18,375 bases of DNA, from positions 57,699 through 76,073 of the forward strand of contig JAAOMT010000731.1 of NCBI GenBank assembly GCA_016748015.1. Direction: 5' to 3'. Each line of letters opens with the position of its first letter. Position 1 is the stretch's first letter. This DNA is from Geosiphon pyriformis uo1. Lineage: Eukaryota; Fungi; Glomeromycota. The position numbers and the translations under genes are program-made. Positions 852-10,849 of this stretch are shown one piece after another. The notes beneath the pieces are model-generated. The model saw nothing but the letters and a program-made list of their open reading frames with translations. It did not search any database and had not been told where the DNA came from.

Positions 852-1070
852 TGTTATCAGACGAAATTAGAGATATTATTTAGCATGAAATTATCTTATA
901 ATTCCTATCATCAATTAGCATATATTATCGTTTTAAATGATCACTTATTATATTAGCAAAAATGTCCGAAATTATCATTTAATTAATAACCCAAATTGTA
1001 CACAACACCAATGTAACCTAATTGCAATGATCAATCATGCAATACCCCGAACTATATAATATTCAAAAAG

Positions 1071-1160
1071 TTTGCCGAAATTTGTAGAAATTTGCCAAAA
1101 TAATTGATAGTTTACCGAAATATCTAATAGTTTGCCGAAATAACTTATAGTTTGCCAAAA
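1071..1160 (+). promoter_or_regulatory. Phased U3 repeat: TTTRCCRAAA x5 at a 20-bp period (candidate enhancer)
   Basis: Copies start at 1071, 1091, 1111, 1131 and 1151. The array recurs at 10085-10174 and lies about 70 bp upstream of a TATA-like box. Function is inferred. Confidence 0.6.
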
Positions 1161-1232
1161 TATATCTTTAATTCAGCAAAATTGTAGAAAATAGCAAAGT
1201 TCGAGTTCATAGAATAGTGTTACGACAAGTTG

Positions 1233-1240
1233 TATAAAAG
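1233..1240 (+). promoter_or_regulatory. Candidate LTR TATA box (TATAAAAG)
   Basis: Consensus TATAWAWR downstream of the repeat array and ~80 bp upstream of AATAAA. It overlaps the inverted repeat AAAAGAAG-AG-CTTCTTTT (1236-1253). Confidence 0.55.
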
Positions 1241-1833
1241 AAGAGCTTCTTTTTTCAAGAAAATGTATCTTACTTTAGATTTATCACTTAGAACCATTTC
1301 TATACACACAAAAAGAAATAAATACCAAATAATTTGAAAAACCAAATTCTTTAATTATTGCCCTTGAAAAATCCCCAAAAACCAACTAACATTTCGAAAT
1401 TGATTAACTACCAATTTCAGTAAACTGTTAGTGACTCCAGGCCTGGATAGAAAACGTTTCTCTTGATAAAATCCTATTTCTTTTACACTTCTTTTATTCT
1501 TCTTTCTTTTCTTATTGCAATCATTAGGGTAGCCTACAGACGAGATTCCTGTAGAAGAGTTAACTTTTACAGCAAAGTAACTACACATTTTTAGTGAGCT
1601 TCTAGACAAGCAATTCCTGGGAAAGAGTTGATGTTTACTACAACATAACTACATAAAGTAACTGGCACGGAATTGGCCATTCCACTCATAAGCCTAGCAA
1701 GTTCAAATTATAGGAGATAATTTGAAGATAAATTCAGTTACTGGAGGTTCAACCACATCCAGAAAACGTGAATTCACAGCAAATAAGTATCAACAACATT
1801 ACAGAAAAGAGACCAAAAACCTCTGGTAACATT

Positions 1834-1851
1834 TGGTGCTTTCCCACGGAA
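1834..1851 (+). other. Primer-binding site, 18-nt tRNA type (TGGTGCTTTCCCACGGAA)
   Basis: Begins 2 nt after the LTR end with TGG, the complement of CCA. Its reverse complement parses as a tRNA 3' end: UU-CCGUG-GGAAAGC-A-CCA, with C at the invariant position 61. The isoacceptor cannot be identified from this window. Confidence 0.85.
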
Positions 1852-1883
1852 ATAACACAGCAAAAAAAAAAACAAAATTCAAA

Positions 1884-3701
1884 GTGGCGACCACACCAGA
1901 CACAACAACTCTAGAGTATTACCAATCAATTTACACCCACTGCAAGCAAAGATTCAACATCCCAGACGGAATTGAAGTTGTCAAGAAATCAGTATACCAA
2001 TACATTGAAAACTGCATCAACAATTATCTTTTTGAAAATTATAATATCTCAAAAGTTAAAAACAACTTTTACAATAATTTAGTACACTATTCACAGTTGA
2101 GAACTAAAGACCTTAATAGTGAAACACTTGCCACTTACTTTTACAAACTTAATTTTAACATTATCAAATACTGTGAAAAAACATATCCAGTGCAGTCTCA
2201 ATACACCATTGATTTTGAATTGAAAACAGAAACAAGCAACAAAGGCAAAAACAAATTAAAGCAATATTCAAGAACCACCTCAAATACTCCAACACTACTG
2301 AAAACAACTGCCAAACATTTACAAACACCTAAACAAGGAACGAGTTCAAAACTTCTACTTACTATCACATCTTTTCTAGCTTCGCTTGCACAAGCACAAA
2401 CACCTAATTCACTCTTGAATCGATTTGCAAGACCAGAAGATTTTACATCACTCAGAAGTTCCACCAAACAACAAGAACCCCTTCAAACTAGTTCCAATCT
2501 CCTTGATTTTCTAGCTGAAAATCAAAGTGAACACTCTGAGACAATAGCAAATGAAGAAAACAACTCTGAAATAACCGAAAAAGAATCAATAGACAGTGAA
2601 AACAAAGAAAACGAAATGACAACATACATCGCAAAAATCCCTGAATTCAATGGAGAAGATATTGAGACCAGTTCCCAAGAATGGCTTGACCAAGTTACTA
2701 AAGCTGGAGATGCAAATGGATGGAACACTGCCAGAATGTTAAGAACAATTCCCTACTTTCTCAAAAAAACAGTAGAAGAATGGTTTGAAAACCTTGCCAC
2801 CCCATTTAATGATTGGAATGCTTTCAAAGCAGCCTTCCTTGAACAGTTCACTGACAATAATACCTCTATCACTCTTCGCAATCATTTTCGAAATACCAAA
2901 CAAGAACTCTCCAAATCTGTTATGACTTATATTGGGAAATTCAACAAACTTCTCAGATGGATTTGCTAACTCGAGACAAATGATTATTATTCCAATGCTC
3001 AAATCTTGGATCAATTTATTGCTGGTCTAAAAGATAAACTAATTAAAAAGGTTCGCCCACATGCGCCAGAAGATTTAAACTCTGCAATACAGCATGCGAA
3101 AAGATACAAAATGGCCATAGAAGAAGCCAATCATACAAAACTTGTAAATTTGGCAATTGGAGAAACCAGCTCAGCAGCTGAGGAAAAAATTGACCAACTC
3201 ACAAAGAAGGTTGAAAACTATTTTACCAACCAGCAACAACAATCCCAAAGATATCAACCACCCCAAAGACGAAATCAAAATAACTTTGCACCACTTTCCA
3301 ATAACCAGCCCCAAAATTGCCATTACTGTGGGATCTCTGGCCACTGGAAAAGAGATTGCAGAAAGCTGCAACGAGACCAACAAAATAGGGGTAATCAACG
3401 TTACTCTCCACCACAGCAATCTTATTATCAACCATTATCACCAGCTTACTATCCACCAAGACCCCAATACCAGAATAACTATTATCAGCGCACCCCACAA
3501 CCAATTCAACAGCAATACCAACAACCACCCACACAACATTATCAAGTTCCTGCTTGAAGACTGATTACACAAAATTAATTCACACCACAAAATCGATACC
3601 AAGTAAACAACAGTAGAATCAGTTCGAACAATCAATTGGTTCCCCAAAATACCACTCAATCAAGACCCAACCATTACCACACTTAACCCAGTTATTTAAA
3701 A
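1884..3701 (+). pseudogene. gag: Gag: N-terminal extension, capsid-like domain (~2616-3150), CCHC knuckle (3318-3359) and Q/P/Y/N-rich tail
   Basis: IPEFNGED...QEWLDQV...NGW...EEWF...FKAAFLEQF...Q...SV..YI..F...DQFIAGL is a retrotransposon capsid signature. CHYCGISGHWKRDC is CX2CX4HX4C. In-frame stops at 2967, 3555, 3576 and 3684. Same frame as the protease. Confidence 0.9.
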
Positions 3702-3911
3702 ATGCCGGAAGAACAGAATTTTCACCATACTGTACTCTCGGAAGGTAGAGCTGTAGCACAACAACAACGAAACCCTTCTCATAACCACACCACTATTCTA
3801 CCAGCCCGAATTACTGAAAACACCAATCTCTTTGACATCTTTCCTTTTGAATTTGAAGCAAATGAATCACCATTCTTGCTTAGCAATGCAGTGGCTAATG
3901 AGCAAAAAGCC

Positions 3912-4260
3912 ATCACTGCAATGTACACAGAAGCTGAAGTAGAAGGAAAGCCAATTTGCTTGATTCTAGACAGTGGATCTGCCGGAAGCATTATTACCTA
4001 CCAGTTAATGCAACAGTTGAAAAGAAATGTCGACCGACCAGCTCAAACAGTAATCATTACTGCCGATGGCATGAAAAAGACACCAGTGGGAGAAATTAAC
4101 AATTTTCCATTCACTCTTGATGGAATTACCATTCCAGTCAAAGTTCTTGTAATGGACGCACCCCAGTATCAAGCTCTCGTCGGAAATAATTGGCTTCAAA
4201 AAGCCAATGCTAATCTGAATTGGGAAACACAAGAGTTAACAATCTCCTACCAAGGACAAC
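3912..4260 (+). pseudogene. pol: Retropepsin aspartic protease domain
   Basis: LILDSGSAGSII (DSG at 3969-3977), flap-like IITADG, and ALVGNNWL. Confidence 0.92.
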
Positions 4261-4479
4261 ATGCCCGGGTACCTGCCATTTGTGGTACATTCAACAAATG
4301 CTCTGAAAAAGTCCCGGCTTTTGAATTTAAACCAAAAAAAGAAAAACCAATAATCAAAACATTCATGGCTCTTGAATCAACGTCCAATTGGGCCGATGAA
4401 ACAGAACAAGAACATTTCATCCCACACACTAAACCCGAAACTTTTGGATGGAATATACCCTACTTAAAACCCGAACCAA

Positions 4480-5200
4480 GAAAACAACGCCCCTATATTC
4501 CCCTTAAATGTAAGGACTGCCACAAGAAACTATCGTCAATGGGAGCCTGCATTTCACCTGAAGAAAAATATGAGAATCACACTTGTTATTACTGCAAGGC
4601 TTGCCACAGAGAGTGATGGGGCCATCTAATAAAAAAGAGCGGAAAATGGAACAACACCCCTTGTTTGACTTGTGGAGATATGCTACCAGAAGAATGCAAT
4701 TGGATTGATGTAGCAATGAGAGGAGGCGTCTGCAATCAGACCTGCCAATATGCCTTATCAATTTCAGAAAAAGTAAAAAGAAGAACATCCTTTAATGCAG
4801 CATACAACAGTGCTCTCAACAAACTTTATCACTACCCTCATGATGCCAAGATGATTTTCGACTTAGCAATAGCATTAATTAATGGAGCTACCAAAGAAGA
4901 TGTTTGTTAGATGAAGGAAGCAGAATACATTGAATACACTATGGAATTAGCTGGATTCAATTACGAAGATGAAGTAGAAGTCTATCACCAAATTGCAAGT
5001 CACACCTACCTGACCCAAGAAGCTCAAATTCAATGATTAGAGCAAATGAACATTAGGCTATGTGAAGAATACATTATGCCTTGCGATGAACAATAGTGTC
5101 CTGAATGCTATGCTCTTAGTATCCCCTTGCCCAGCAAAAATGATGAGAATGAAATTGAATTTGGAGAACCTGAAGAAATGGAAGAAATTGAAACAACACC
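4480..5200 (+). pseudogene. Unassigned Cys-rich polyprotein insert between PR and dUTPase
   Basis: Same frame as gag-PR when read through stops at 4614, 4908, 5034 and 5094. Cys clusters: CKDC...CYYCKAC, CLTC...CNQTC, CEEY...C...CPEC. Confidence 0.7.
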
Positions 5201-5229: not shown

Positions 5230-5782
5230 TACAACTTAAATACTTCAACAACAATGGANNNNNNNNNNNNNNNNNNNNNNNNNNNNNNNNNNNNNNNNNN
5301 NNNNNNNNNNNNNNNNNNNNNNNNNNNNNNNNNNNNNNNNNNNNNNNNNNNNNNNNNNNNNNNNNNNNNNNNNNNNNNNNNNNNNNNNNNNNNNNNNNNN
5401 NNNNNNNNNNNNNNNNNNNNNNNNNNNNNNNNNNNNNNNNNNNNNNNNNNNNNNNNNNNNNNNNNNNNNNNNNNNNNNNNNNNNNNNNNNNNNNNNNNNN
5501 NNNNNNNNNNNNNNNNNNNNNNNNNNNNNNNNNNNNNNNNNNNNNNNNNNNNNNNNNNNNNNNNNNNNNNNNNNNNNNNNNNNNNNNNNNNNNNNNNNNN
5601 NNNNNNNNNNNNNNNNNNNNNNNNNNNNNNNNNNNNNNNNNNNNNNNNNNNNNNNNNNNNNNNNNNNNNNNNNNNNNNNNNNNNNNNTACTCTTAATCAA
5701 CATTTCGGGTTTGCAACTAGTCAATCAAAGAGAACAATTAGGAAAAAGTGATAGAGGAACCCAAGGTTTTGGTTCAACTGGA
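5230..5782 (+). pseudogene. dut: dUTPase domain of the polyprotein (core hidden in an assembly gap)
   Basis: [15 protein letters not shown]; [10 protein letters not shown] (5753-5782) matches motif 5 (RGxxGFGSTG) of trimeric dUTPases. Motifs 1-4 would lie in the N gap at 5259-5687 and cannot be seen. Confidence 0.8.
5259..5687. other. Assembly gap (429 N)
   Basis: Run of N. The apparent frame change between gag-PR and RT falls inside it and cannot be interpreted. Confidence 0.99.
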
Positions 5783-6289
5783 CAATTCATAGTTCCAGTT
5801 AATATAGCTCTTAACACACAGAATGAATCCCACCAGATTCTCAGACTTCCACAACCAATTACCATCTCACCCTTTGGAGAACATCCGGAAATTTACACTT
5901 GCACAAAGCCAACAACCACACAACAAATTTTTGAGTCCAATGAACAAATCTGCTTGGAACATAATATTTCAATCCCAAACATTTATATTCCAGAAGGAAC
6001 AAAGAAAGTCCGAGTTACTTTTTACAACCCCAATAATTACCCCATAATTTTATTAAATAATTTAGAAATTGGAGTTATTCACAGTAATATATTTCAAAAA
6101 GAATTACCCCAAACAGTCCCCGATTTCTCTGAAATTATTGGACATTCCCTACCGAAAATCAACCCAAACCCCAGCTCTAAAAACTACCATGTTGTCATGA
6201 AAAAACTATCTCGAATCAACATGGGACAACTTGAACTACAACAACAGACTCAGCTCAAAGAACTAATTGCGGAATTTGCTGATATCTTT

Positions 6290-7030
6290 GCTGAAAACAA
6301 CAATGACTTAGAAAGAACTGATTTGGTTCAACACCAAATCTATACAGGAAATGCCAAACCCAAGCGACAACAAGCCTACCGAGTTGCTCCAGAAAGTCAC
6401 CAATTTATCCAAGAAGAAGTACAATGGATGCTTAACAATGGGCTTATTCAACCATCAATGAGCCCATGGGCCTCACCTGTAGTTCTAGTTAAAAAGAAAA
6501 ATGGAAAGATACGATTTTGTGTTGATTACCAACAACTCAACAGTATCACTATTGGGGATGCCTACTCTCTTCCCTGAATTGATGACATGTTGGATGCCCT
6601 TGGAAAGTCCAAATACTTTTCAACATTAGATTTAGAGAGTGAATACTAGCAAGTTGCTATGGATCCCAAAAACCACTCCAAAACAGCATTCACCACTCAA
6701 GGAGGAAATTATGAGTTCAATGTAATGTCTTTTGGATTATGCAATGCACCAGCAACATTCCAAAGACTCATGGATGTTGTTTACAAAGGCCTCCTTTGGA
6801 AATCAGTAGTAGTTTATCTTGATAACACTGATGTTTATTCACCATCTTTTGAGCTACATTTAATTCACCTGCGAGAAGTTTTTCAACGATTACGGAAAGC
6901 AGGATTGAAACTGAACATTGAAAAATGCTACTTCGGAAAAACAAGTTTAGCTTTTCTTAGTCACATTGTTAGCAAAGATAGAATTAAACCAGATCCCGGA
7001 AAAATCAGTACTGTCAAAAACTTCAAGACT
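6290..7030 (+). pseudogene. pol: Reverse transcriptase (Ty3/Gypsy type), inactivated
   Basis: [62 protein letters not shown]. The catalytic YLDD reads YLDN (6815-6826). Stops at 6575 and 6647. Confidence 0.97.
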
Positions 7031-7239
7031 CCACAAAATACAGAATTAAGAGGATTTATTGGATTAGCATCCTATTACCGAAAATTCATCAAAGAATTCT
7101 CAGAAATTGCAAAACCCCTCAACCAGCTCACTACAAAAAATGTCAAATACAAATGGACAAAAGAACACCAAAATGCCTTCGAGATACTCAAAGAAAAACT
7201 CACAACAGTCCCAATTCTCGCCTACCCAAACTTCAGCAA

Positions 7240-7621
7240 CCGATTCCAGTTAGTAACTGATGCTTCTTATACTGTCTTTGGTGCTATCCTATCACAGTTA
7301 GATGACAATAGAAATGAGCAAGTAATTGCTTATGCTAGTAGAACATTAAAGCCAGCCGAAAAGAACTACTCCGCAACAGAATTAGAAACCACAGCAGTAA
7401 TCTGGGCCCTACATCACTTCAACTTTTACCTCAGACCCAAAGAATTTGATATTATTACTAATAATATTGGACTTAAATGGCTTCAAAACAAAAACACCCA
7501 GCTGAATGCAAAACAAACCCGATGGACAGGATTTTTAGCTAATTATCAATACATCGTACACCACAAACCAGGAAAACTCCACACCAACGTTGATTGTCTC
7601 TCAAGGATGAGGCAAGATTAG
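7240..7621 (+). pseudogene. pol: RNase H domain
   Basis: LVTDAS...GAILSQ, VIAYASRTL..AEKNYSATELE..AVIWAL, IITNN (TDH position), HKPGKLHTNVDCLSR. Confidence 0.95.
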
Positions 7622-7675: not shown

Positions 7676-9061
7676 ATGAACCCCAAAAACTACAACAATC
7701 TTAAACAATATTTGGAGACATTAACAATTCCAACAGATTGGTCCTCAGACGAAAAACATCAGTTACAACAACAAGCCAAACAATATTTTCTACACAACAA
7801 CATTATCTATCATCAAAATTTCAAAAACCCAACCAAACCACTCAGATTAATACAAGAACAGGAAAAAGAGACTATTTTATACAACATGCACTCGGATCCT
7901 TCATTAACACACTTCGGAAAAGATAACACCACCCAAAGAACACTAGAATACTACTTTTGGCCTCGAATAAGAAAAGACATTCACAAATATGTCGAATCTT
8001 GTGATAGTTGTCAAAGAAGAGGAGGAACTCGTTCTACAGAACCTTTAAATCCAATCAAAGTTAGACAGCCTTTTGACAGAGTTGGTATTGATTTAGTCGG
8101 ACCACTATCTATTACCACTTAAGGAAACCGTTATATTGCAGTAGCTGTAGACTATCTTACTAAATGGCCTGAAGCCAGAGCCATTCAACGAGCAGATGCA
8201 AAATCAGTGGCAAATTTTATCTATGAAAACATCATTTGTAGACATGGATGTCCAATTGAACTTTTATCCGATCAGGGAACACACTTTGTGAACAACCTGA
8301 TACAAAAAATTTGTGAACGATTCAATGTCAAAAGACCTCTGTCTTCGCCCTACCATCCACAAACAAACGGACTTGTGGAATGTTTTAACAGAACATTGTG
8401 TGAGTCATTAGCCAAAGTCTCAACCGATTTTGAGCAAGAATGGGATCTTTTTATTCCATCAGTGTTACTAGCATATAGAACATTAAAACAAGATACCACG
8501 AAACACACACCATTTGATTTAACTTATGGAAGGACGGCAACATTACCAATTAGTTTCACAGTGGAAACATACCCAACACAACTGATCGATAAAAACAATT
8601 TCCAAGAAACGCTTCAGTAAAGAGCCTATACTTTGCTTAATACATTGGAAGGAAAACGACGAATAGCAGCCACCCATATTGAACACTCCCAAGCTCAACA
8701 AAAAGAACAGCATAATGACAAATTGCCTTCAGTCACCAATAAATTCAAAATTGAAAACAAAGTTCTCTTACACAGAACTAAAGCTGAAAAACAATGGAGT
8801 GGAAAATTTGAAAATAAATGGGATGGACCATTCTTTATCCATGAAGTCCTAGACAATGGATCATACCAGCTAAGACTTGATGACAAAATCCTAGCAAAAG
8901 TTGCACATAGAGATCGTTTGAAATACTATCATTCCAGAAACAATCCTGAACCATTAATTCCACAAATTGGTACACATTCTCCTTTGGTCAGTCCCAAAGA
9001 TATTCCCCAAAACTTAGAACCAATAGTTGTCATTGAACAACCTTCCAACCTGAACACTTAA
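7676..9061 (+). pseudogene. pol: Integrase (HHCC, DDE, GPF module; no chromodomain)
   Basis: MH....THFG...YFWP...CDSCQR; GIDLVGPL; VDYLTKWPEA; SDQGTHF; SPYHPQTNGLVE.FNRTL; KWDGPF...HRDRLKYY. Stops at 8120 and 8618; ends at TAA 9059-9061. Confidence 0.96.
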
Positions 9062-9177
9062 TTTAATTTTACTAGTCATTCTCTTATAATTTAGAAACAA
9101 TCTCACAAAAACAAAAACAAAAATAACATAAAAACCCATACACCAAAAATAATTTTTATTTTTTTCAATTGCTTATA

Positions 9178-9897
9178 ATGACTATTCCTCAAAACATTCA
9201 ACAATTATTCCAAAAACTAATGTTAGCTTTAAAAACAATACCTGAATTATCTATTATTGTTACTGGAAACCACATTAATTATACCCAAACAGAAGTAGTT
9301 ACAAATTTAGCCTCAAACTCACGAAAATATCATCCATATAAAAAGAACATAAGAAGTTATACTGAAATTCACCTGCCAGAACTTTTAAAGCTTGCTTTAA
9401 GAGAAAACCTAATGCTCACTCCGATTAGTATTCCACCAAATGCTACAATTCAACAAAAACTTCAACTGTGTCTCAATGAGAAAAACACTGAATATTCTCC
9501 AATCTATAAATATTTTCACATTGGAAAAACACTCTACAAACGGAAACTGGAACTTACAACAGCAAACCTCACAAAAAAAGCTATTCAGAAACAACTCCAC
9601 AATGAATTCAAGACAACGGCTGGATCAACAAACAGTTGCTACAGGCTTAGAGCCGTTCTTAGACTTTATGACCTATTCCACACCTGTGAAAACATACTAC
9701 AAAACCTGATTTTTCAACCTTTGAAGATTCAATACATTGGAAAGCTCACAGAACTGAAATTTCAACAATTTTCAGACCAAATTTCTTCAATAATTTTGGA
9801 TTATTATCTGGAAAAAACAGACAGTACTTGGACTTCGACAGAACTCAGTCTTGAGGAGGAGGTTATGTTACCAGATAAAATTAGAGATATTATTTAG
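9178..9897 (+). CDS. Extra ORF in the env position; 239-aa soluble protein of unknown function
   Basis: ATG at 9178 with no stops, on the sense strand in a different frame from pol. It reads through the PPT (GAG GAG GAG = EEE) and stops 32 nt inside the 3' LTR. No obvious signal peptide or TM helix. Confidence 0.75.
   Translation: MTIPQNIQQLFQKLMLALKTIPELSIIVTGNHINYTQTEVVTNLASNSRKYHPYKKNIRSYTEIHLPELLKLALRENLMLTPISIPPNATIQQKLQLCLNEKNTEYSPIYKYFHIGKTLYKRKLELTTANLTKKAIQKQLHNEFKTTAGSTNSCYRLRAVLRLYDLFHTCENILQNLIFQPLKIQYIGKLTELKFQQFSDQISSIILDYYLEKTDSTWTSTELSLEEEVMLPDKIRDII
9853..9862 (+). other. Polypurine tract (GAGGAGGAGG)
   Basis: Purine run ending 3 nt before the TG of the 3' LTR. Confidence 0.88.
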
Positions 9898-10845
9898 CAT
9901 AAAATTATCTTATAATTCCTATTATCAATTAGCATATATTATTGTTTTAAATGATCACTTATTATATTAGCAAAAATGTCCGAAATTATCATTTTATTAA
10001 TAACCCAAATTGTACACAACACCAATGTAACCTAATTGCAATGATCAATCATGCAATACCCTGAACTATGTAACATTCAAAAAGTTCACCAAAATTTGTA
10101 GAAATTTGCCAAAATAATTGATAGTTTACTGAAATATCTAATAGTTTGCCGAAATAACTTATAGTTTGCCAAAATATATCTTTAATTCAGCAAAATTGTA
10201 GAAAATAGCAAAGTTCGAGTTCATAGAATAGTGTTACGACAAGTTGTATAAAAGAAGAGCTTCTTTTTTCAAGAAAATGTATCTTACTTTAGATTTATCA
10301 CTTAGAACCATTTCTATACACACAAAAAGAAATAAATACCAAATAATTTGAAAAACCAAATTCTTTAATTATTGCCCTTGAAAAATCCCCAAAAACCAAC
10401 TAACATTTCGAAATTGATTAACTACCAATTTCAGTAAACTGTTAGTGACTCCAGGCCTGGATAGAAAACGTTTCTCTTGATAAAATCCTATTTCTTTTAC
10501 ACTTCTTTTATTCTTCTTTCTTTTCTTATTGCAATCATTAGGGTAGCCTACAGACGAGATTCCTGTAGAAGAGTTGACTTTCACAGCAAAGTAACTACAC
10601 ATTTTTAGTGAGCTTCCAGATGAGCAATTCCTGGAAAAGAGTTGACATTTACTACAACGTAACTACATAAAGCAACTGGCATGGAATTGGCCATTCCACT
10701 CATAAGCTCAGCAAGTTTAAATTATAGGAGATAATTTGAAGATAAATTCAGTTACTGGAGATTCAACCACATCCAGAAAACGTGAATTCACAACAAATAA
10801 ATATCAACAACATTACAGAAAAGAGACCAAAAACCTCCGGTAACA
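9866..10845 (+). repeat. 3' LTR (980 bp)
   Basis: Direct repeat of 852-1831; runs TGTTACCAGA...TCCGGTAACA and is followed by ACAT. Confidence 0.97.
10331..10336 (+). terminator. Candidate polyadenylation signal AATAAA in the 3' LTR (copy at 1317-1322)
   Basis: Hexamer ~80 bp downstream of the TATA-like box. It is weak evidence in DNA this AT-rich. Confidence 0.35.
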
Positions 10846-10849
10846 ACAT
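10846..10849 (+). repeat. Right 4-bp target-site duplication (ACAT)
   Basis: Identical to 848-851. Confidence 0.9.

Follow-up and report, generated by a model that had tools for sequence, protein, structure and literature searches.

The window, by which is meant the whole stretch of 18,375 nucleotides from the fungus Geosiphon pyriformis that was analysed here, contains a decayed Ty3/Gypsy element that is the host of a third gene, ORF3 (Table 1). The element is identified by its pair of LTRs, a target duplication of 4 bp (ACAT at 848-851 and again at 10846-10849), a primer-binding-site candidate, a PPT and the order protease, reverse transcriptase, RNase H and integrase. The two LTRs differ at 32 positions, 31 of which are transitions, and 15 of the 31 transitions occupy CpG sites, a bias that fits decay through methylation. 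Pfam matches in gag are to Retrotrans_gag (E=6e-9) and zf-CCHC (E=1e-4), and the closest solved structure to the reverse transcriptase is that of Ty3 (4ol8, E=5e-62). The stretch assigned to the end of the dUTPase has zero Pfam match of its own, with the remainder of the enzyme presumed to lie within the N gap at 5259-5687, and no chromodomain was matched by Pfam at the end of the integrase. The gag-pol of this copy carries 13 internal stops in 2267 codons, which amounts to one per 174.

Table 1 Features of the element within the window.
Feature	Position	Strand	Basis
5' LTR (TGTTA...TAACA), 980 nt	852..1831	+	Pairwise LTR comparison
U3 tandem array, 20 nt x 4.8 copies, core TTT(G/A)CC(G/A)AAA	1069..1163	+	Sequence
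gag: long N-terminal extension, capsid, CCHC knuckle, internal stops	1830..3557	+	Pfam
Primer-binding-site candidate, TGG 2 nt past the LTR	1834..1851	+	Sequence
Aspartic protease, then Cys-rich stretch	3687..4616	+	Asp_protease_2, E=6e-10
dUTPase, C-terminal end	5690..5785	+	Matches P0111, where PF00692 lies directly upstream
Reverse transcriptase and RNase H, end TAG 7619-7621	6200..7621	+	RVT_1, RT_RNaseH
Integrase: H2C2, rve, weak SH3/GPY-F end; own ATG	7677..9061	+	Pfam
AT-rich spacer, 116 nt, T-rich run before the ORF3 ATG	9062..9177	+	Sequence
ORF3, 239-aa accessory protein (P0001)	9178..9897	+	ATG 9178, TAA 9895-9897
Predicted four-helix core of ORF3, residues 91-175	9448..9702	+	AlphaFold2, invariant residues, HHalign
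Cis element: short inverted repeat, PPT (9853-9862), LTR start	9833..9876	+	blastn
3' LTR, 980 nt, start TGTTA at 9866	9866..10845	+	LTR comparison

Several further stretches of the element carry features of their own. In the region 1500-2616, the first in-frame ATG of gag (2616) is preceded by 262 open codons that reach back to the LTR end, and U5 has the look of coding sequence in decay, including a duplication at a spacing of 68 nt (1534-1585 and 1602-1653); the start of gag may lie inside the 5' LTR. Between the protease and the dUTPase (4400-5110) there is a Cys/His-rich region in which several CxxC pairs occur and to which Pfam matches nothing significantly, and the roughly 140 codons from the dUTPase end to the reverse transcriptase (5790-6200) are likewise without a Pfam match.

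ORF3 starts 116 nt past the integrase stop (9059-9061), in a frame that differs from that of pol. The first-pass annotation had reported 239 stop-free codons at this place, and indeed there is zero internal stop between the ATG and the TAA; the stop-to-stop frame extends over 256 codons, as against a maximum of 162 and a mean of 60 in 2000 composition shuffles. The frame crosses the PPT (GAGGAGGAGG, 9853-9862) and then 32 nt of the 3' LTR, just as had been claimed, and both the protein motifs quoted in that annotation and the TTTAG at 9090-9094 are present in the sequence. As a candidate acceptor this TTTAG has no alignable counterpart in the metagenomic loci L001 and L002 described below, and the spacer before ORF3 resembles neither of their spacers at the DNA level. 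The earlier caution that intactness alone is weak evidence is well founded: given one stop per 174 gag-pol codons, a frame of 239 codons has a 25% chance of being intact by itself, and for this reason the case for ORF3 rests on its relatives. In DNA run X1, contigs cover ORF3 as well as integrase. The description of the protein as basic applies to the window copy, with a pI of 9.2, and fails for the four full-length metagenomic relatives, with pI values of 5.2-5.9; residues 149-166 are the only part that is basic in all seven of the seven full-length rows, with 3-5 K/R against 0-1 D/E.

The protein family to which ORF3 belongs appears in many copies and in four lineages, in keeping with the expectation that a real gene would be conserved among copies. 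Out of 444 candidates 205 match ORF3, and 119 of the 120 listed are named, all of them from Geosiphon pyriformis and up to 92% identical. The Geosiphon proteins form two subfamilies, near 85% and 65% identity, and beyond them are two metagenomic lineages at 27-31% identity; an exhaustive search of 1.84 billion proteins recovered the full-length homologs P0143 (28%, E=2e-13) and P0145 (31%, E=3e-12). A profile of the distant members recovers only P0143, P0145 and P0166 among 4550 candidates, and the detectable family is therefore narrow. With P0145 as the query in the Atlas, a 98-member Mucoromycota cluster scores 0.94 with 176 shared features, which is below the recognition threshold and hints, weakly, that sequence searches miss part of the family in these fungi. 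A tree of 23 of the 55 aligned rows consists of star-like Geosiphon copies together with three deep lineages, where subfamily A is not one clade (47/73). No relatives were found in viral contigs, prokaryote genome contigs or phages; PHROGs yields only scattered unnamed families, the best at E=0.001 in one of eight, and there is zero match at cut-off between the ORF3 protein and any family of Pfam, PHROG or NCBIfam. A titin match (P0148) is spurious and is left out of the family counts, and a closterovirus coat protein (Atlas score 0.93 with both queries) shares 156-159 of 256 features, below the recognition threshold, and is a lead only.

Fundamental to the status of ORF3 as a gene is whether its protein has been under selection. 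Between the window and L001 the integrase is 62-65% identical with a dN/dS of 0.16-0.18, whereas ORF3 is 29% identical with a dN/dS of 0.30, and two further ORF3 pairs give 0.31 and 0.47; these values are rough because dS approaches saturation and the alignment of codons was guided by protein, yet in all three pairs ORF3 stays below the value of about 1 that had been named as telling against the gene. The conservation is also uneven, in that the majorities of the two subfamilies concur at 92 of 111 positions in the core but at 49 of 85 in the N-terminal part (p=1e-4), and conserved columns tend to be shared by two separate comparisons, that of the Geosiphon subfamilies and that of P0143 with P0145 (p=0.047). 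Excluding the tail, 31 positions are identical in all four lineages. The tail has been set aside in these tests since the motif ELSLEEE-x-MLP, derived from the PPT, is encoded by a cis block that is conserved as DNA and hence is no evidence of constraint on the protein. This block is the only blastn match of the ORF3 region, to L001 (82% over 44 nt) and to the locus L003 (90% over 39 nt). An inverted repeat directly before the PPT (9844-9855 in the window, 3095-3106 in L001) is conserved in DNA between lineages that share no other non-coding similarity, and is likely a plus-strand priming signal.

The alternative that ORF3 is passenger DNA, either a captured gene fragment or a frame open through low stop density and the PPT signal, draws on that same 25% chance of intactness in the window copy, on the fact that its most conserved part, the tail, is a cis DNA signal, and on protein databases that list only copies in which the ORF is kept. 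Set against it are full-length frames that persist open at 27-31% identity without DNA similarity except for the PPT block, the low dN/dS, the uneven conservation and shared conserved columns, and the outcome of the search for a captured host gene, which had been raised as a possible origin: no cellular homolog occurs among the matches listed (best 120 of 213; best 120 of 205), in the exhaustive search or in the profile search with distant members. The passenger reading is thus very improbable, and on these comparisons ORF3 is an old and maintained gene that evolves faster than pol.

The second aspect of ORF3 that recurs between lineages is its position. A metagenome scan gave three loci from 310 pattern matches, and in both of those with upstream context ORF3 comes after the integrase, the arrangement that had been put forward for checking in homologs, and has a frame that continues across the PPT into the LTR. 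In L001 the order is RT-RH, integrase, a 316-nt spacer, ORF3, PPT and LTR, and in L002 it is the integrase end, an extra 128-aa ORF and ORF3, with L003 containing only the tail of ORF3 and an LTR. Of 165 proteins, 15 are Geosiphon gene models that extend N-terminally beyond ORF3, and the extension carries integrase in 12 cases, from both subfamilies, and other element parts in the other three; a host segment ahead of ORF3 is found in 0 of these 15. The PPT-derived motif is present in 118 of the 122 proteins that extend to the tail. ORF3 accordingly has the attributes of a sense additional ORF (aORF-3S), in that it reads in the sense direction, lies after pol and before the 3' LTR, and is conserved across copies and families.

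A location and orientation of this sort are also those of env and of the sense aORFs (PMC7264820), and the window copy contains three N-x-S/T sequons, both of which would suit a protein that mediates transfer between cells in the manner of Env or a fusogen. The protein itself argues otherwise. None of the 55 aligned family members reaches a 19-residue hydropathy of at least 1.6, the criterion for a TM anchor, the highest value in the window copy being 1.33 (residues 10-28); P0001 has no furin site of the form R-x-[KR]-R; and Cys content is 0-3 in the six ORF3 rows counted. There is no env family among the Pfam matches of ORF3 members and no viral fold match in BFVD. The earlier statement that the protein is without a TM anchor and a furin site is hence upheld, while the proposed absence of a signal peptide was judged by hydropathy alone. 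The Env-like reading is extremely improbable and, going by these sequence features, largely refuted. What is supported is that ORF3 is a conserved, non-Env, soluble accessory gene fixed between integrase and 3' LTR, and the proposal of a soluble accessory ORF that is not an envelope is backed by position, relatives and the absence of a hydrophobic segment.

With an alignment of 55 sequences AlphaFold2 predicts a helical protein at a mean pLDDT of 56.7, with values of 67-91 over residues 81-160, and is confident only at helices 91-99, 108-128 and 133-148 and at the start of 153-175. Between helices 133-148 and 153-175 lies the invariant turn G149-x-T151-N152, R162 being conserved as well, and in the model the two helices may form a helix-turn-helix-like unit; residue 154 is R in four of four metagenomic rows and R, H or C in Geosiphon, the pattern of CpG decay. 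Foldseek returns 0 matches at E<=0.001 in the PDB and BFVD. With VIA-align the best Z is 5.8 and 0 of 48,161 entries reach Z>=8, a result that effectively tests residues 80-169 and does not imply a novel fold; the best rows include the CHD1 C-terminal and Orc6 domains (Z 5.5-5.8), while SigmaF (Z 5.4, rmsd 2.4, 57 residues) and, for a helix-turn-helix of the ParB/KorB type, the domain of KorB that binds DNA (rank 39, Z 4.5, 55 residues aligned at rmsd 2.4) are within noise.

The first-pass impression of a resemblance to DUF3102 or DUF1016_N divides into two outcomes. DUF3102 (PF11300) is absent from the 19 Pfam families matched by the 55 members at E<=2, whereas DUF1016_N (PF17761) finds weak independent support as the commonest Pfam match, in seven of the 55 members at E<=2 with a best value of 0.015, albeit far below the cut-off: P0001 scores 14.1 bits against a gathering score of 32.8 bits, and no DUF1016_N match arises with P0143, P0145 or P0149 searched singly. 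HHalign aligns ORF3 to DUF1016_N over a gapless 66-column core at a probability of 37-39%, above 180 of 180 shuffles and not significant, the template being six sequences from named records and the family having been chosen after the fact. The profile score is 22.1 and 22.8 for the lineages apart and 31.4 when pooled, in the same register, and the metagenomic profile alone shows weak anchoring of the same two motifs. The likeness comprises a Y-x-x-I-G-x-x-L helix, a G-containing turn, an R-L-Y-x-x-F helix and a K-L-T motif, which keep register across 66-105 columns; in contrast, ORF3 has only 15% identity, lacks a PD-(D/E)XK nuclease domain and sits in a eukaryotic retroelement, PF17761 being the N-terminal domain of YhcG. 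The shuffles are a lenient control because an implausible match to FtsQ also beat 40 of 40. FtsQ was itself a candidate (NCBIfam E=7e-5 in five of five Geosiphon rows and none of three metagenomic ones) and was rejected: it is absent from the fold lists, its score falls on pooling (30.4 and 18.4 apart, 26.4 together), the metagenomic profile finds nothing, and the matched region is presumably a beta-rich domain. True homology of ORF3 and DUF1016_N, on this profile evidence, has a probability a little under even. DUF1016_N is a domain that we take to be a helix-turn-helix; no literature linking DUF1016 to that motif was found.

What, then, is the function of such a protein? The reading that is tentatively preferred, which we consider possible at somewhat less than an even chance, is that the ORF3 product is a nuclear DNA-binding regulator that acts on its own LTR, switching on or keeping up transcription. 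As to expression, localisation, binding and effect, we infer that ORF3 would be made from a short subgenomic RNA, arising from an internal promoter or a splice and ending in the 3' LTR, that the protein would enter the nucleus and bind repeated sites, for example those of the 20-bp array in U3 that precedes a TATA-like box, and that it would activate or sustain LTR transcription in a host that likely methylates repeats. The mode could resemble that of the foamy virus activator Tas or of VANC, an anti-silencer that depends on tandem motifs. The invariant G149, T151, N152 and R162, together with Arg 154 and the basic segment 149-166, provide a hint of DNA binding. Also in favour of the regulator are the DUF1016_N score that rises on pooling, the KorB and SigmaF alignments, the U3 array, and the methylation and small RNAs directed at transposable elements in R. 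irregularis. Counted against the regulator are the lack of a significant structure or family match, the weak model, the choice of DUF1016_N after the fact, the acidic metagenomic proteins and an array that is not conserved as such in L001 and L003.

The array in question sits 70 nt upstream of the TATA-like box (TATAAAAG at 1233) and has a more decayed counterpart in the 3' LTR at about 10089-10176; it is a candidate set of factor-binding sites. Its core is near-palindromic (TTTGCCGAAA) and presumably resembles the sites of E2F/SBF-type cell-cycle factors. In L001 and L003 the array itself is not conserved and there are instead three spaced copies of TTGCCCTAG upstream of a TATA-like box, with a TTGCC count that is matched by 74 of 1000 shuffles and so is not significant. 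The enhancer repeats of LTRs are commonly sites for host factors, and the U3 repeats of the window and of L001/L003 could equally be of this kind. A more elaborate version of the regulator, in which a polycistronic 'complex' LTR retrotransposon carries an integrase ORF along with a helix-turn-helix activator or anti-silencer that came from a bacterial DUF1016_N-like domain, binds its own U3 array and aids LTR expansion, would be unlikely when taken as a whole.

The main rival to the regulator arises from the integrase being behind a stop and from the polycistronic-looking 3' half of the element. A stop codon at the end of RNase H is found at the equivalent place in the window (TAG 7619-7621, followed by the integrase ATG at 7677) and in L001 (TAA 772-774, ATG at 799), with an A/C-rich spacer between stop and ATG in both. 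Among 821 contigs of run X1 no single other letter comes to 8% at the stop, where depth is low, and one diverged contig of that run keeps the stop, with loose ends marking the spacer as divergent. From this arrangement the integrase is probably a separate ORF, an unusual layout that bears on how the genes of such elements are expressed, although the in-frame stop is also compatible with read-through. The extra ORF of L002 (425-811), which has no Pfam match, ends 26 nt before ORF3 and is absent from the window and L001; given its presence the 3' half looks polycistronic.

ORF3 might on these grounds act at the level of RNA, either exporting unspliced genomic RNA, as CERV and Rev do, or enabling the translation of downstream ORFs, as does the TAV of caulimoviruses on polycistronic RNA. 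The element would need such help, its integrase and 3' ORFs being behind stops; the layout of stop, A/C-rich spacer and ATG is shared by the window and L001, the spacer sequence itself diverging in run X1, the L002 ORF ends close before ORF3, and the basic helix could have RNA for a ligand, not only DNA. CERV offers a precedent (PMC10309623). On the other side, no RNA-binding fold or family is matched in Pfam, VIA or Foldseek, and the closterovirus coat match in the Atlas is weak. Moreover, since the RNase H stop is in frame with the integrase in both elements, plain read-through or splicing could deliver the integrase and a helper might be unneeded. A role in RNA export or translation is, overall, unlikely.

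Small helical bundles often act as adaptors, and ORF3 may instead be a protein adaptor, for example one that helps particles to assemble, enter the nucleus or target integration, or one that inhibits a silencing protein of the host. With this would agree the acidic character of the metagenomic members, the CHD1 C-terminal and Orc6 domains among the best VIA rows, the lack of a chromodomain match at the integrase end, and a rate of evolution faster than that of the integrase, which fits a host-facing role. The invariant residues and the Arg, however, cluster at the turn and the second helix, as for contact with nucleic acid, and the sequence analysis identifies no partner. An adaptor is judged unlikely, and the DNA-binding regulator continues as the preferred reading.

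The significance of a regulator of this type relates to its host. LTRs make up 41.2% of the G. pyriformis genome (PMC11952901), and in a relative, R. irregularis, CG methylation and small RNAs target transposable elements (10.1101/2021.03.30.436303). A conserved regulator encoded by the element is a concrete candidate for how the LTR expansion escaped silencing, and the 240-aa soluble protein and 95-bp U3 array are a candidate pair for such a system; in the more elaborate version of the regulator described above, if true, the ORF3 activator would have contributed to the expansion by which LTRs came to cover 41% of the genome. In the literature searched, which includes the accessible content of PMC5006619 and PMC13465315 and has supplements, Repbase/Dfam and most subscription papers outside its scope, neither the ORF3 protein family nor, for these fungi, an integrase in an ORF of its own was found described, and no fungal Gypsy element came to light with a self-activator that binds DNA in the way of Tas or VANC. 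Within that scope, ORF3 is a real accessory gene, old, under constraint and not an Env, whose protein family is undescribed and whose fungal Gypsy lineage has an unusual organisation.

A number of known systems bear comparison. ORFs placed after pol and before the 3' LTR already form a recognised class (PMC7264820, PMC2864245, PMC6431247), and the function of the accessory ORFs of LTR elements is mostly unknown (PMC7264820). The aORF-3S (PMC7264820) and the 'add. ORF' of fungal Gypsy elements (PMC2864245) share with ORF3 the same position, orientation, presence across family copies and unknown function, but the plant aORF-3S is env-like, in some cases with a TM segment (PMC7264820), whereas ORF3 has no TM segment and overlaps the PPT and LTR. 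The dUTPase-bearing Ty3/Gypsy elements (Metaviridae) such as PosPlaTy3-5 have the same gag-PR-dUTPase-RT-RH-IN order (PMC2864245), although, unlike in PosPlaTy3-5, the integrase of the window is separated from RNase H by a conserved stop, has an ATG of its own and is followed by a third gene. Foamy viruses differ in that no sequence or fold link to ORF3 was found and that the window element has no env. Their Tas/Bel1 gene is located 3', next to the LTR. Its product is an activator that binds the LTR and an internal promoter (PMC8670036, PMC4929722), a role that ORF3 may share. VANC21 and VANC6 of VANDAL (PMC6719617) are accessory proteins of a transposable element that act via short tandem motifs in a methylating host, for which the U3 array would be the candidate counterpart; VANDAL is, however, a plant DNA transposon, no homology of its proteins to ORF3 was found, and anti-silencing by ORF3 would be an analogy. 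Finally, CERV of the C. elegans element Cer1, to which no homology of ORF3 was found and for which gRNA export has been shown and the mRNA is spliced, is likewise a non-env accessory protein of a Gypsy-type element (PMC10309623).
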